Source: Catajapyx aquilonaris (Eukaryota). From it: a DNA stretch of 55,296 nt. Position 1 is the stretch's first letter. Every line of letters starts with the position of its first letter. Shown in pieces: positions 1-51,014 of this stretch. The stretch lies in NCBI GenBank assembly GCA_000934665.2, contig KZ539385.1:1-55296 (forward strand). The letters are read 5' to 3'. The notes beneath the pieces were generated by a model. The model was given only the letters and a program-made list of their open reading frames with translations, had not been told where the DNA came from and did not search any database. Both the position numbers and the translations under genes were made by a program.

Positions 1-99
1 GGTAGCCTAAATAACTAAATAAGGCGTATGTGTAGCAATGCTCTCTAGGCTTTATCAGCTTAGGTCTGTTTTTTAAGGGTCATGGAGCAAAAAAAAAAG

Positions 100-234
100 G
101 AAGTTAGCTGTTAGCATTAGCTTTAACTAATTTTCTAGCCACTTAGCATTAGCTATTTAGCAAATCCAATTTTTTGTAGTTAGCTTATCAGCTGTTAGAG
201 AAGCTGATTTTTCGGTTAGCTGTGCCCACCTTTG
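100..234. mobile_element. Probable end of a non-autonomous hAT-like element with TTAGC subterminal repeats
   Basis: Dense ttagc/tagc repeats ending ttagctgtgcccacctttg. The other end is not in the window, so there is no TIR or TSD confirmation. Confidence 0.35.
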
Positions 235-828
235 CTTATTATCTGAGCCGACATCGGATCGAGGGAGCACGCTCGGCGGCAGGAAAATGGCTTGGTTCGT
301 TACCGTCCAAATAAATAGCCTACATGGAGGTATGGAATTGGGCTGAATCTTTGCACACTGCTGTATTACTACGCGACTCCCACAGAGGTTTCCAAGTTTG
401 ACGCTCCAAATCATCGGCATAAGGTGTGTACAGGAATTTTTTGTAATTTTTGGTAACGAACCAAAGCTTTCGGATGACTCTGGTTAGTTACTGAAACTGA
501 AGCACACAGAGATCACCCTCCGACGATTTAAGCACACCAATCGAAAGAGGACATCAAGCTGCATCCAACAGACACACTTGAGAAGTGATCGAATGAATGG
601 CAATGCTTACAGAGGCGCCAAAAGCCTCGCGTGTCCCCAGACACTAAAAGGCCTTTGGCGCGCACAGTTGAACGTATGAGCAGCTGGTGCCAAAGAACAG
701 CAACACTGACCAATTTTAAGGTTGGCATTGTTTAGTAGAGATGTTGAGCATCCGATTGGTGTGATCAAATGCGGTATTCAACGAAAAAAATAATCGTCGC
801 TTCATGTCCGCTCTATCGCAAAAATGCC

Positions 829-829
<1 letters not shown>

Positions 830-892
<63 letters not shown>
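830..892. repeat. (ATT)n microsatellite, about 20 units
   Basis: Direct reading; explains the poly-Ile ORFs. Confidence 0.98.
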
Positions 893-1286
893 CTCCTTGG
901 GGGTCCTTTCGGCGTGGACAATCACGATAGTAGTGCGGGCTCTCTTGTCCTATTGGCTGGTCATGGTGCAAGGTCACAATGTTGACCATGGCGGTTTTGT
1001 AAACCCAAGAGACAGCTTGTTGCTATACCAATTGCAGTAATCTACATATTATTGTCTTTGTACTAGACCTTTGTACCCTAGACTGCAAAATGTGTCCTAA
1101 TTTACCGGCGCCACCCTGTATAAACTCATTGTTACAAAAAATAAAAAACCTTGCGATTTTTGCCCAGTGATGTTTTTAAATCTCCAAGATCCTAATCTAA
1201 AACACGCACCATTTGGCCTGTGACACATTCCAAGGGTTTTTTTCATGCATATAATTTCTACAAAAATATATATATGGATAATATAC

Positions 1287-1607
1287 GGGGAAGGCGCGGT
1301 GGCCGAGATGGTAACGTCTCGGCTTGCTGAGCGGAAGGTCCCGGGTTCGATCCCCGCCCTTGATTTCCCTTCCGCCTGCGTCAGTGGGTCTCTGCCCGCG
1401 CCTAAGAAGTCTGGGGGACTGCACATGACCCATTTCCGACATTGCACTTGCACCTGTGTCCCCTCCCCAAAAATCCCTATCCTTACCCCATTTCCTTGCT
1501 TCCCTGCACGGAGAACGAAGAAAAAAGTATGAAATAATAGAAAACCGATGGTGGTAGGCCACCCCCCTATAACGACTTACGGTTGTATCACGGGGTAAAA
1601 TAAATAA
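1287..1607 (+). mobile_element. tRNA-derived SINE, family A copy 1
   Basis: A box TGGCCGAGATGG, B box GGTTCGATCCC, (TAAA)n tail; 15-bp TSD atatggataatatac (1272-1286 / 1608-1622); homologous to 5941-6280. Confidence 0.9.
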
Positions 1608-1854
1608 ATATGGATAATATACTATTAAAAGGCCGACTGTGTCGTAGTTTCAAGTCGATATGAGTTTAGATGAAGCTGCAAGTGGGAGATATATAGGCCT
1701 ACTATATACTACCCCGAAAGAGTACTGATGAGTAAACTTTGGATAAAAATAAGTAAGTAAGTAAATAAATAAAGGTCCACTTCAGTTGATCTGGAGCTTA
1801 TAAGTACGTACTGTAGGTTGTCGCACCTGCTTGACGCAAATGAGAAAGAGAGAG

Positions 1855-1930
1855 AAAAAAAAGGACCCACATGGGATTCGAACCCGGATTCACCACCACG
1901 GATGGCATGGCATGGCGCGGGAGCGGGACA
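1855..1930 (-). other. Second B-box element (GGTTCGAATCC) in a degenerate tRNA-like fold, followed by a T8 run
   Basis: GTCCCGC...CCGGGTTCGAATCCCATGTGGGTC-C-TTTTTTTT; no recognisable A box or D arm; about 60 nt downstream of the tRNA-like gene, same strand. Confidence 0.5.
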
Positions 1931-1989
1931 AAACTAAACAGAAAAAACGAATAGGTAAAATAAATTACAAAATAAAAAAATAAAAAAGA

Positions 1990-2125
1990 TAGTGCGAGAC
2001 GGATTCGAACCGCCGACTTGAGATGGCCCCCCACCTGCCCTGCTTCGGGCGCTACAGCTAGCGTTCCTGCAGAGACAAATTGGGAGATAAAGGCCTCACG
2101 CTCTAACCAACTGAGCTATCGCACT
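1990..2125 (-). tRNA. Atypical intron-containing tRNA-like gene (mature 73 nt, nominal anticodon TTT with C33; 63-nt intron 2025-2087)
   Basis: Acceptor stem AGTGCGA/TCGCACT + A73; D arm GCTC-AGTTGGTTA-GAGC; anticodon stem TGAGG/TCTCA; T arm GGCGG-TTCGAAT-CCGTC; A and B boxes intact; T6 terminator 2 nt downstream; intron after position 37 with C32 able to pair with the antepenultimate intron G. Confidence 0.8.
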
Positions 2126-2157
2126 ACCGTCCTGTGGGGCCTCTCCTTTTGAGGTGC

Positions 2158-2208
2158 TTTATACCCAATACCCCTCCATCACGTGACCACTGACGTCATG
2201 TGACGTCA
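2158..2208. promoter_or_regulatory. Upstream element array: TATAAA (minus, 2158-2163), E-box TCACGTGA (2179-2186), two CRE palindromes TGACGTCA (2191-2198, 2201-2208)
   Basis: Motifs read directly. TATA lies 33-38 nt upstream of the tRNA-like 5' end; the two CREs start 10 bp apart. Confidence 0.7.
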
Positions 2209-2262
2209 CCAGGGGGGTGAGGGGCAGGGGCAAGCCGATTCGGTTACGTTCTGTTTGCAAGT

Positions 2263-2943
2263 ATGGCGGCTCATGAGGTATTGTGGAGAGCCACGTGGCT
2301 GGTCGCCTCTTTCGCCCCTTCTCTGCCCTGCCCCCGGGGCGGGAGTTCGAAGGAAGTGGGGTCTCCATCGGCCCCCATTCGTGCCCCTCCAGCCGCCTCC
2401 AGTCAGGCTCATCTTCACAAGTACGGGGAGTCTTTTAAAAATATCGTCGCCGGAGCACTTTTTTCTTTCTTTCTTTCTTGAAAGGAGACATGTTCTTGGA
2501 TGAAGAGGGCTTCCTCTTGGGCCAGCAGAGGAGGATGTTGCTGCCTTGTCACACCACATGTCTTACCAATAACCCAGGTATGTCTGTTTGGTGCCAGTTT
2601 CCCCATCCCTCTCTTACCAAGGGGGTAATCACTCGACTGAAAAGTGTACACTGGAGTACCATTCAAGGAGTACCACTCGCAGGTGTACACCGGAGTACCG
2701 AAGTGATTACCCCCTTTTCTCTTACTGTTACAGGGTGGAATTCGTTGGGATATAAAAGGGGAGCATATAATGGTGGTAGGATCACTATGTGCAGTGGAAG
2801 CATTGTCAAAATACCGTAATCCAATCCCAATACTCTGTATTGTAGCTGTTCACACACACATTGCTGTGTGGTGGTCTTGCTCATCCACAAATGAAGCTTG
2901 TGGGATGGGTGGTTGGATTCGCATATCAATAGATGAAGAATGA
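2263..2943 (+). CDS. Candidate small 3-exon orphan gene or lncRNA: join(2263-2277,2485-2577,2734-2943), 105 aa
   Basis: ATGGCGGC start downstream of the CRE array; donors GAG|gtattg and CAG|gtatgt; acceptors (tttc)n-ttgaaag and cttactgttacag; open phase-0 frame; AATAAA at 3150 and 3158. No recognisable homology. Confidence 0.35.
2618..2717. mobile_element. 100-bp MITE (hAT/P-like) with 15-bp TIRs and 8-bp TSD
   Basis: aagggggtaatcact (2619-2633) / agtgattaccccctt (2702-2716); TSD tctcttac at 2610-2617 and 2718-2725. Confidence 0.75.
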
Positions 2944-5502
2944 ATTAATACTGAACTGTTTGGTCGCCAGGGAAGGGAATGCAAATCTAAATTAAGGAGG
3001 AAAAAATGTATACGTTTATGGGCTTCTGATGGAATTGTATCAGTCACAGGACAGGATTTGAAGGAATGAACCCAAAATTTGTGGATTAAGGTTCGAGTTA
3101 ATAGGGGGAGGGTATTACAGCTATATGATGACTATTACAATGAAATGTAAATAAAACAATAAAAAACAGGCCCTACACTCAAGGGCCTTTTTGGGAAAAA
3201 TTATTCGATGAGCAACTCTCAGAAAATCATGGCATTTAATTACAACATGATTGTGCAGATACTGGGAAACATGATGAAGGAAAATAATAATGAAGTATCG
3301 GTCATGTAAAATGACATCTAATCATCCATATAGGATGTGTTTGAAAATTATCACCTGTAAGGATTTCATTATTAATTATTTATGATGATAATAATAATAT
3401 ATTATATCATCTTATATCTTTTTATATTATATTATTGTTATTAATTATTGATTATACTAATTCGGCAAGTAGAAGGCGTTCCATCCTGAAGCCTGGAGGT
3501 TTTGCTGCCCTCCTTCGTCCCATGCAAGGCGACGGGTGTTGGTCTGGTGGTGCCAACAACTCAGCAATGAGATGGTCCTCCTGCCTTGCCCGTCCTTTGT
3601 TGGTGAACGTCACCTGGGACACCGCCGAAGTCAACATCCCAGCATAGCCTGGCCTGTCGTAAATCTGTTGTATTCCCCCCCCTTTAAAAAATTATCTGTG
3701 AGTACCTGACCAGGCTTCAGATTTTTTTTGGTATATGTATTTGGTCATACGAGGATATTGAGGACCTCCTGATCCTGAATATCCGCTGGCAACCCCATAT
3801 CTGTTTGGGAAACGCCATGAAAATGATGATGATGATGTAGATGATGATTATAAATTTATAATAATTTCGTATTATTGTGCCATTCAGGTAAAATCTGACC
3901 AGACGTTATGCTTGCCCAACTGCTAGGATTAACATATGAATGGCCAAGTTGGGGAAGGGGCACATATGAATTATACTATAGGCTGACAATAACTCCTTCA
4001 AGCAGCCTAAGTTGTAAGAAGGCAAATCAAGAGTGTCTCTTGCCCCCCAAACAATTACTTCATTGCCATTTTTTTGCCAATTCATCTGCTGCCTATGCAA
4101 TGGCAGGTGCAGGAGAATTGGCCACGCTTGATGTTGCAGTCATGGATGGACCTGCGTGGTTGGCTCAGCAGGTTGTGGGGCTGCACCTACGGCCCTCGTC
4201 TCTTCCACTGAGGGATCATCCCCGGTTGGTGGCGGCAGCAGCAGCGAACCTCAGACATGTAGTGTCCACCTACTCCTCCTGCACCAGGTTGCCACAAAAT
4301 CTAACAGGTCCTCAAGTCATCTGTGTAGGTAAGGCCTTCTGAAGCCTCCCCTGCTGGTGGGCACTATCACCCGATCAATCACTCTTGGTTTGGGAGGAGT
4401 CCTCTGCCTCATTGTTAACCGGTTTTTTGGCACGTGCAGGAAGACATTACAGTAGATTCCACTATTGTGCAGCCCATTGGCAGGAAAATTTTATGCAATA
4501 AACAGCATTTTATATCTGAGTCCAAGCAATTTTATGCAAATACTACTCCACTTGAAGTATGCGACTAAACATAATTAATTTTAGTGAACTCTTATGGTGA
4601 ACACTTGCAAGTACAACTTGAACGCCCAGTCTAAGTTAAAGTTCTCCATAGGTTTGGTTGTGGTCATTATGACATTGGTTGCCCACAATGTAAAATAACA
4701 GGAATTAAACTTCCCGGGTGGCAGGAAGAACTTACATCAGCAATGGAATCTGATAAGATTTATTGTAATTAATTATTGAAAAAACAAAAATTAGCAACTA
4801 CTAAGGGCAACCTGACGGATTTATTGTTTCAGTGAGTTTGGTGCTCCATGACCTAAATAGAGTACGGTATACATTTAAACCTTCTTATATTATAACTAGA
4901 ACTGTAATTGAACCATGGAAATAAAAACCGAACTAACTCCAGTGAGGGAATAAAAGGACTTGTGCCCTTCTTGCACTGACCCCTCGGAAAGCATAGAAGG
5001 GACCATCACACATGCACAGGCCTGCACATGCATGGAGTTTGCAGGGCAGTTGCAGCGGGCAATTCAACACCCATCCACGTTGAAACGATGCTTGTCGGAC
5101 ATGTAAGTACTGCACAGCACACGTTTGTAGTAACCCCCTCCCCACGAAGCCCTCTTGGAGTTGTTTCGGTTTTCTCTTCCATGGCGTGTGGAATACAAAT
5201 TAAATTATTGTATGGAGTTATGGTTATAAACTTATAATTAGTTTTAAATGTTTACCCCGTTTATGTCACAGAGCACCAAACTCACTGAAACCAATCTGCC
5301 AGATTGCCCTACTTGTTAATTGGTGTTTTTTCAATAATTTATTATGAATAACAATAAATCTGATCAGATTCCTTTGCTGATGCAGGTGCTCCCTGCCACC
5401 CGGGACGTTTAATTCCTGTTATTTTACGTTGTGGGCAACCAATGTCATAATGGCCACAACCTCTGGAGAACTTTGACTTAGCCTGGGTATTTGAGTTGTA
5501 CT

Positions 5503-5722
5503 CAGTGGCGGATCTAGACGTCGTTGTTGGGGGGGGTGATTTGTCGCCGCGCTCCCCCCCCCCCNCCCCAATAAGGAAAAAACCCCAAAAAGCCCGCCGC
5601 AGGCGAAATTTTTTTACACTATGTAAGCACATCAGATTGCGAAATGGCCATTTTTCTGTTTCTTGCTTCAGCTTGGGGGGGGTGATCACCCCGATCACCC
5701 CCCCCCCATAGATCCGCCACTG
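5503..5722. mobile_element. Non-autonomous hAT-type MITE (220 bp)
   Basis: TIR cagtggcggatcta / tagatccgccactg; 8-bp TSD gttgtact (5495-5502 / 5723-5730); single empty site in the other arm of the inverted duplication. Confidence 0.92.
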
Positions 5723-5940
5723 GTTGTACTTGTAGGTGTTCACTGTAAGAGTTCACTAAAATTAATTATGTTCAGTCACGTACTTCAAGTGGAGTAGTTG
5801 CACTCGATTGCTTGGACTCAGATAAAAAATACAGTTTATTGCATAAAATTTTCCTGCCAATGGGCTGCACAATAAAGTGGAATCTACTGTAATGTCTTCT
5901 TGTACTGTACTTGTTAGGTGCCAGTAATCTGGATAAAACT

Positions 5941-6280
5941 GGGGGAGGTGTGGTGGCCGAGATGGTAACGTCTCGGCTTGCTGAGTGAAAGGCCCCAGGT
6001 TCGATCCCCGCCTGGGGAACTTTCCTTTCACCTGCGTCAGGAGGGTCTCTGACCTGCACCAAGGAGGTGTCTGGCAACCTAACCTCCTGGGGAACAGCAC
6101 ATGACCCATTTGTAGACATTGCACTTGCACCTATATGTTCCCTCCCCAAAAAATCCCTACCCTTACCCCATGTCCTTTCATCCTTGCACCGGAGTTAGAA
6201 GAAAAATAGAAAATTGAAGGAAAAATGGTGGTATTCCACTCCCCTATCCTATGGCCCTATCACGGGGTACATAAAAAAAA
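5941..6280 (+). mobile_element. tRNA-derived SINE, family A copy 2
   Basis: Same head, body and tail as 1287-1607; A-rich tail; 15-bp TSD aatctggataaaact (5926-5940 / 6281-6295). Confidence 0.9.

Positions 6281-14885: not shown

Positions 14886-51014
<36,129 letters not shown>

Follow-up and report, generated by a model that had tools for sequence, protein, structure and literature searches.

An intron-containing tRNA-type gene with a Lys-like anticodon arm in Catajapyx aquilonaris: a candidate member of a low-copy, lineage-specific family

A stretch of 55,296 nucleotides of Catajapyx aquilonaris DNA (assembly GCA_000934665.2, contig KZ539385.1, positions 1 to 55,296 of the forward strand; hereafter the window) contains near its start a pre-tRNA-type gene of 136 nt, encoded on the minus strand from 2125 to 1990 and composed of a 5' exon, a 63-nt intron and a 3' exon. 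We regard it as probably an active member of a lineage-specific, low-copy family of intron-containing tRNA-type genes, likely derived from a tRNA-Lys gene, and assign this explanation a probability of roughly 0.55. Its decoding role is uncertain because of a C at position 33, an A1:U72 pair and a short variable loop. The explanation builds on the anatomy of the gene, on its low copy number and on exons that are unchanged beside a changed intron. The parts of the gene are the following.

1990 to 2125, minus strand: whole pre-tRNA-type gene, 136 nt (RF00005, 51.3 bits, model positions 1-71)
2088 to 2125, minus strand: 5' exon, tRNA positions 1-37 (AGTGCGA, D arm, TGAGG, loop CCTTTA)
2089 to 2091, minus strand: nominal anticodon TTT (UUU), preceded by C33
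2025 to 2087, minus strand: 63-nt intron at 37/38 with a bulge-helix-bulge-like motif and a long hairpin
1990 to 2024, minus strand: 3' exon (A38, TCTCA, AGTC, GGCGG-TTCGAAT-CCGTC, TCGCACT, discriminator A)

Comparison of the window with Rfam gave a single family match at gathering score across all 55,296 bases, the tRNA family RF00005 on this gene, which covers the whole model (71 of 71 positions) and scores well above the gathering cut-off of 29 bits (E=3.8e-08). That this score is reached despite the intron, while the tRNA-like head of a neighbouring short interspersed element (SINE; head at 1287-1360) stays below the threshold, was counted in favour of an active tRNA-type gene. Read from 5' to 3', the acceptor strand AGTGCGA is followed by TA, the D arm GCTC-AGTTGGTTA-GAGC, G26 and the anticodon stem TGAGG; the anticodon loop runs C32 C33 T34 T35 T36 A37, is interrupted by the intron and resumes with A38, and behind it come TCTCA, a variable loop of 4 nt, the T arm, the acceptor strand TCGCACT and the discriminator. 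All seven acceptor pairs (AGTGCGA/TCGCACT) are of the Watson-Crick type, the first being A1:U72. The anticodon stem TGAGG/TCTCA has four Watson-Crick pairs and G31.U39, and the T stem GGCGG/CCGTC contains one G.U pair (G50.U64). Altogether 21 of 21 stem pairs are formed (19 Watson-Crick, 2 G.U), and the core nucleotides U8, A14, G18G19, T54-T55-C56, A58 and G26/A44 are kept. The joined exons gave a perfect cloverleaf of -23.0 kcal/mol in the computed fold. The U33 rule for tRNAs is broken, with C33 preceding the nominal anticodon UUU. A preliminary description of this DNA had reported a complete cloverleaf with intact A and B boxes and a T6 terminator, which the Rfam score, the pairing and the fold confirm; every detail of it that we checked was accurate, and the strand, which it had left out, is the minus strand.

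Other parses of the same DNA were considered and rejected. ARAGORN reported no gene with default settings, and with introns allowed it proposed an implausible tRNA-Phe(gaa) whose D stem is mispaired and whose intron would measure 42 nt; the Rfam parse was preferred. Shifting the anticodon stem, which would restore U33 and give TTA or another anticodon, would require position 26 to hold two nucleotides and leaves the stem without a matching 3' strand, and a GTA anticodon within the intron hairpin has no supporting stem.

The intron lies between positions 37 and 38, the single position used by tRNA introns of eukaryotes (PMC9023262; this and the other articles are cited here from excerpts). When the cloverleaf was enforced, the anticodon loop paired with the 3' end of the intron in a 4-bp helix (C32-G, C33-G, U34.G and U35.G), the partner of C32 being the antepenultimate G of the intron. 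This helix lies between a 5' bulge of 3 nt, U36 A37|U, and a 3' bulge of 3 nt, C C|A38, and in each of them the cut site follows the second nucleotide. The constrained fold with this bulge-helix-bulge-like structure, in which the remaining intron folds back as a hairpin, has -46.9 kcal/mol compared with -54.0 kcal/mol for the fold of minimum free energy. In Drosophila, 16 of 16 intronic tRNAs have a C-G proximal pair, which must be intact, and the remaining helix is weak (PMC6614914); the proximal C-G pair, the weak remaining helix and the 3-nt bulges found here fit all the requirements given in that excerpt. The insert had already been placed at 37/38 with a geometry suited to the TSEN splicing endonuclease, and the pair between C32 and the antepenultimate G as well as the 3' bulge CC|A bear this out. 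The long intron hairpin that had been described was recovered too: the intron alone folds into a long hairpin capped by CGCUA-GCUG-UAGCG (-29.1 kcal/mol, z=-2.36), and 4 of 200 shuffled sequences were equally stable. The complement strand of the intron folds far less stably (-21.2 kcal/mol, z=-0.73); the hairpin thus relies on G.U pairs and is particular to the RNA strand. In the literature search we met with no account of a long intron in an animal UUU tRNA, which is not proof of absence, and a full-text search with a 27-nt stretch of the gene returned 0 papers.

Contig depth was compared over 1400-2800 in four of five public runs that contain this DNA, which are contig-based and of DNA or unclear kind; X1, X2 and X3 represent one sample and X5 comes from another study. 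Depth was summed over contigs and does not equal copy number, and the bins measure 47 nt, so that borders are approximate.

2387 to 2574: unique stretch, depth about 35/22/20 (X1/X2/X3)
1964 to 2151: gene bins, depth 136-243/131-211/105-180 (X1/X2/X3)
1447 to 1493: SINE, depth up to 189,320 (X1)
2622 to 2715: miniature inverted-repeat transposable element (MITE), depth about 158,000 (X1)
1870 to 2340, no strand assigned: apparent low-copy repeat unit comprising the gene and its flanks, depth about 4-10 times that of unique DNA at 2340-2574

The gene reaches a summed depth of 105-243 and the adjacent unique DNA one of 20-37, which places the gene at about 4-10 times unique DNA, compared with about 5000 times for the SINE and the MITE alongside. 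This contrast rules out a high-copy repeat. The raised depth spans about 1870-2340, showing that flanks are repeated along with the gene. No second copy of the gene was found within the window. The explanation that the gene is the head of a tRNA-derived SINE or of another high-copy repeat is essentially excluded: high-copy tRNA-derived SINEs do occur in this genome, one of them 400 nt away, but the depth of the gene is far below theirs, the window holds only the one copy, the T-run terminator follows right after the discriminator, and around the gene neither a SINE body nor an A-rich tail nor a flanking direct repeat of the target-site duplication type was found. The preliminary description had linked a SINE head with hundreds of copies bearing target-site duplications; the gene is not a high-copy SINE head.

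Differences among the copies fall in the intron. One variant contig per run, spanning 1995-2119 (with a depth of 61.5 in X1), has letters other than the window's at seven positions, 2058, 2064, 2067, 2071, 2073, 2076 and 2085, all of which are intronic, and the window's own letters at these positions occur in no contig of the X1, X2 and X3 runs. The variant contig has 0 of 62 exon letters and 7 of 63 intron letters changed (Fisher's exact test, one-sided p=0.007). In a second variant the last two intron letters, 2025 and 2026, are changed (depth 39.5 of 101). A collapsed contig covering 1907-2024 (depth 118.8) stops exactly at the border between 3' exon and intron. The shared 5' contig of X5 (2090-2174) has no differences and starts at anticodon position 35/36, and the end of the variant contig at 2119 lies 30 letters past 2089. 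This suggests that some family members differ from the third anticodon base (position 36) through the intron. No differing letters with a share of at least 10% were listed in either exon or in 2086-2340. The unchanged stretch 2086-2340 next to an intron with 7 of 63 letters different is an odd pattern for a plain duplication.

Mapped onto the intron hairpin, four of the seven changes affect paired and three affect unpaired positions. Among the former, three break pairs (G-C to A/C, U-A to G/A and G-C to A/C) and the fourth replaces U.G by C-G; of the changes at unpaired positions, one makes the apical stem longer when the variant itself is folded. Compensatory changes are absent from the variant intron (0 of 7). 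Its fold has -28.2 kcal/mol, and among 3000 random sets of seven substitutions with the same mix of transitions and transversions 16% were equally stable when substitutions could fall anywhere and 23% when they fell in the 5' half. With one variant at hand, this is weak evidence, and it suggests that the exons rather than the hairpin are conserved. The earlier proposal that the structure of the intron rather than decoding is being conserved is not supported, the exons being identical and the seven intron changes including three that break pairs and none that compensates.

The bodies of animal tRNAs are extremely conserved within each amino-acid family. The gene was compared with the stems that Table 1 of PMC9023262 gives as conserved in common among human, mouse and silkworm tRNAs, of which the row for Lys-CUU is shown here above that for the gene.

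Lys-CUU (PMC9023262): acceptor GCCCGGC, D stem GCUC, anticodon stem UGAGA, T stem GUGGG
Catajapyx gene: acceptor AGUGCGA, D stem GCUC, anticodon stem UGAGG, T stem GGCGG

The acceptor and T stems of the gene match no row of that table, as excerpted. With metazoan tRNA-Lys the gene shares the UUU anticodon, the D stem GCUC, the discriminator A and a loop with C32, U36, A37 and A38, and its anticodon stem UGAGG agrees in four of five positions with the Lys-CUU motif UGAGA. It differs from tRNA-Lys in the acceptor (AGUGCGA versus GCCCGGA or GCCCGGC), in the T stem (GGCGG versus CAGGG or GUGGG), in A1:U72 instead of G1:C72, in C33 instead of U33, in a variable loop of 4 instead of 5 nt and in its 63-nt intron, tRNA-Lys having no intron in animals; the anticodon stem of tRNA-Lys(UUU) is UYRGA, unlike UGAGG. 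Two marks, A1:U72 and C33, are shared with initiator tRNA-Met. The gene differs from the initiator in its anticodon (UUU versus CAU) and acceptor (AGUGCGA versus AGCAGAG). The T loop of initiator tRNA-Met carries A60, whereas the gene has U60. Further differences from the initiator are the anticodon stem (UGAGG versus CUGGG) and the T loop TTCGAAT with T54 in place of A54 (PMC9023262). Among the metazoan tRNAs analysed, A1:U72 and C33 were found only in the initiator, mammalian Leu-UAA being a further case of A1:U72 (excerpt of PMC9023262). Animal KEOPS complexes modify substrates with C33, and the determinants for t6A37 are C32, U36, A37 and A38 (PMC8887486), all of which are kept in the loop of the gene; by analogy, C33 need not prevent maturation of the gene product. 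Judged by its letters and computed structure, the gene is a tRNA, Lys-like in its anticodon arm and outside the canonical tRNA-Lys(UUU) family. The preliminary description had likewise held it not to be a standard tRNA-Lys(UUU), and this is supported by the acceptor stem, the T stem, C33, A1:U72 and the variable loop of 4 nt, all of which deviate from the signatures in the excerpt of PMC9023262.

Candidate RNA polymerase III (Pol III) signals lie within the gene and on both sides of it, distances upstream being given from the mature 5' end.

2107 to 2118, minus strand: A box TAGCTCAGTTGG, fits TRGYnnARBGG with the usual extra D-loop U (consensus from PMC7279448)
2001 to 2011, minus strand: B box GGTTCGAATCC, 11 of 11 positions to GGTTCRAnYCY (consensus from PMC7279448)
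1974 to 1987, minus strand: Pol III terminator-type run T6-A-T7, beginning 3 nt past the discriminator (TC-TTTTTT-A-TTTTTTT)
2158 to 2163, minus strand: TATAAA, -38/-33
2180 to 2185, no strand assigned: CACGTG palindrome of the E-box type, -60/-55
2191 to 2198, no strand assigned: perfect TGACGTCA palindrome of the CRE/ATF type (CRE, cyclic AMP response element), -73/-66
2201 to 2208, no strand assigned: perfect TGACGTCA palindrome of the CRE/ATF type, -83/-76

The octamer TGACGTCA occurs twice in the 55,296 bases, both times upstream of the gene, with 0.37 occurrences expected by chance. Farther upstream a C-rich tract lies in a GC-rich island with 53-70% GC compared with about 40% around it. 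According to the excerpt of PMC7279448, animal tRNA genes carry, with rare exceptions, no TATA box, nor do they have sites for CREB or Sp1, and CRE sites are absent from SINE copies. The few non-tRNA genes with A/B-box promoters, namely 7SL, vault, EBER1/2 and 4.5SH, join a CRE around -50 to a TATA-like element at -30/-24, and some of them also have a GC box (PMC7279448). The gene shares with these the internal A and B boxes together with an upstream TATA box, TGACGTCA-type CREs and a C-rich tract. It differs in encoding a full cloverleaf tRNA with an intron, in having a perfect TATAAA and in the position of the CREs, at -83/-66 from the mature 5' end versus about -50 from the transcription start; moreover, the examples in the excerpt of PMC7279448 come from mammals and their viruses and the gene described here from an arthropod. 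By this analogy the upstream layout of TATA box and CREs, newly recognised here, resembles the 7SL/vault/EBER class and is unlike that of animal tRNA genes. Alternatively, the CREs, the E-box and the GC-rich island could be part of an unrecognised divergent promoter of RNA polymerase II (Pol II), and a non-coding or small-exon transcript is a possible owner of the upstream sites. Pfam searches gave no match for the 16 largest open reading frames (ORFs) of the window and only two sub-threshold, chance-level matches among the 129 ORFs of at least 50 amino acids in the first 14 kb (1-14 kb). An ATG at 2264 and a short ORF at 2490-2578 were left unassigned.

From these elements we infer how the gene would be transcribed, spliced and ligated, and what function it might have. 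Pol III would be recruited via the internal A and B boxes, aided by the TATA box and possibly by the CRE pair, and transcription would end at the T6 run. After trimming of the ends by RNase P and RNase Z, TSEN would be expected to cut at the two 3-nt bulges of the bulge-helix-bulge-like motif, and RtcB would ligate the exons into a tRNA of 73 nt with the anticodon UUU; it may also circularise the 63-nt intron, as it does with other tRNA introns of animals. The exons, and with them the tRNA body, would be the target of selection; the particular intron hairpin would not. The product would be something other than the canonical tRNA-Lys(UUU), either a minor regulated isodecoder for AAA/AAG or an RNA with a non-decoding role.

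Several observations weigh against this explanation. The gene combines C33, the A1:U72 pair, an atypical intron host and a variable loop of 4 nt that lacks G46, and such combined departures from tRNA rules usually mark pseudogenes (excerpt of PMC9023262). The intron-rich tRNA families of animals are Tyr-GUA, Ile-UAU, Leu-CAA and Arg-UCU (excerpt of PMC12168002), and the UUU tRNA that hosts the intron here is outside these four. Exact-pattern scans for relatives outside the genome, made on metagenome contigs with the 5' half and with the 3' half, and on viral contigs, yielded 0 matches. All variant information comes from contigs of one sample, and the copies have in common, without listed differences, flanks of about 215 nt upstream and about 120 nt downstream; the unchanged exons may therefore partly reflect recent duplication instead of selection. 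The main rival explanation is a young, non-functional tRNA-derived relic, a mutated Lys-like copy that lies with a tRNA fragment in a low-copy duplication or mobile unit of about 470 bp and looks intact since it has had little time to decay. We consider this unlikely, although it is a serious contender: besides the pseudogene-like combination of features, the raised depth takes in the flanks beyond the gene, there is a truncated tRNA-like piece, which has a T9 run of its own, 90 nt downstream, tRNA-derived SINEs abound in the genome, and no protein gene or landmark was recognised within 14 kb, where Pfam gave only the two weak matches. A relic that had diverged from every standard acceptor, anticodon and T stem would, however, not be expected to keep 21 of 21 pairs and all core tertiary nucleotides, nor does it account readily for seven intron changes beside none in the exons, or for the presence of splice motif, terminator, TATA box and CRE pair together. 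The preliminary description had argued against a decayed pseudogene, and the fully paired stems, the intact core nucleotides and the proper splice motif and terminator speak for that view.

A different role for the same anatomy would be that the tRNA body serves as a chassis for Pol III and TSEN/RtcB, with a circular 63-nt intron RNA (tricRNA) or a regulated non-coding RNA of the vault or 7SL style as the product. This we regard as decidedly doubtful. It would fit a hairpin that surpasses shuffled sequences on the sense strand only, through G.U pairs, and a C33 that disfavours efficient decoding; stable circles are known from long structured tRNA introns in flies and worms, and TATAAA with two CREs is the layout of 7SL, vault, EBER and 4.5SH, which animal tRNA genes and SINEs are reported, in the excerpt cited above, to lack. 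The variant intron is difficult to reconcile with it, as none of its changes is compensatory, three of the four at paired positions break pairs, and its stability is matched by 16-23% of the random sets. In addition, other copies seem to diverge at the intron borders, which makes the intron the least conserved part, and the upstream sites could serve the divergent Pol II promoter instead. The earlier suggestion of a vault-RNA-like RNA gains one unexpected argument, the TATAAA and the two perfect CREs upstream, but Rfam gave no vault RNA or other family match, and vault RNA (RF00006) had no match at gathering score in the window and none at E<=5 in 1-6000. In its intron the gene can be compared with Drosophila tRNA:Tyr-GUA CR31905, likewise an arthropod gene with an unusually long, hairpin-forming intron at 37/38, a C-G proximal pair and a weak anticodon-intron helix, for which processing by TSEN and RtcB would be expected here as there (excerpts of PMC4536317 and PMC6614914). 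According to the same excerpts CR31905 differs in its host, Tyr-GUA versus UUU with C33, and in the length of the intron, 113 nt (circular tric31905) versus 63 nt; its intron has many covarying pairs across drosophilids, whereas the single variant found here has none.

A bolder explanation would be a small Pol III gene family whose complete, spliceable tRNA chassis is driven like 7SL, vault and EBER by a TATA box and paired CRE/ATF sites and whose product responds to signals. We offer it tentatively and hold it to be doubtful. If it were true, this would be the first animal tRNA-type gene with a CREB-type upstream promoter, and the output would be a tRNA that acts outside normal elongation and bears a Lys anticodon beside two marks of the initiator type (A1:U72, C33), or variable circles derived from the intron. 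The gene unites a tRNA body without a family, two initiator marks, a long intron in an unusual host and an upstream layout of the 7SL/vault type. If active, it would show that a tRNA chassis can be put to new use under Pol III control that depends on signals, for a specialised decoder or an intron RNA; if silent, it would be an example of how convincing a young tRNA-derived relic looks to gene finders in repeat-rich arthropod genomes.

The repeat unit contains one further element of tRNA origin.

1853 to 1900, minus strand: 3' fragment of tRNA origin that carries a second perfect B box (1874-1884), ending in GGGTCC and followed by a T9 run

This fragment, which sits 90 nt past the terminator of the gene, had no Rfam match at E<=5. 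The piece 1862-1935 was tried as a tRNA and rejected, being neither a cloverleaf nor unusually stable (z=-0.18). The SINE at 1287-1607 and the MITE at 2619-2716 flank the repeat unit and are unrelated to it. The SINE (plus strand) is complete and tRNA-headed, has a tail of the (AAAT)n type and is flanked by a target-site duplication of 15 nt, ATATGGATAATATAC, at 1272-1286 and 1608-1622; the summed contig depth of its body rises to about 189,000, and its head is the one that stays below the Rfam tRNA threshold. The MITE-like element measures 98 bp and has perfect 15-nt terminal inverted repeats (AAGGGGGTAATCACT) and a summed depth of about 158,000.

Elsewhere in the window, an uninterrupted run of 520 T at 44162-44681, which may be an artefact of assembly or a homopolymer of great length, is the cause of open frames in all six reading frames there. 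The hairpins at 30493-30578 and 39165-39241 matched many unrelated miRNA-precursor models on both strands below the gathering score (best 55 bits versus 139) and are most likely palindromic repeats of the MITE type rather than miRNA genes. A match to the box C/D small nucleolar RNA snR75 at 3821-3900 (plus strand, 22.2 bits against a required 40; motifs ATGATGA and CTGA) lies in a low-complexity context of ATG repeats and is probably due to chance. A perfect (TAT)21 microsatellite occupies 830-892.

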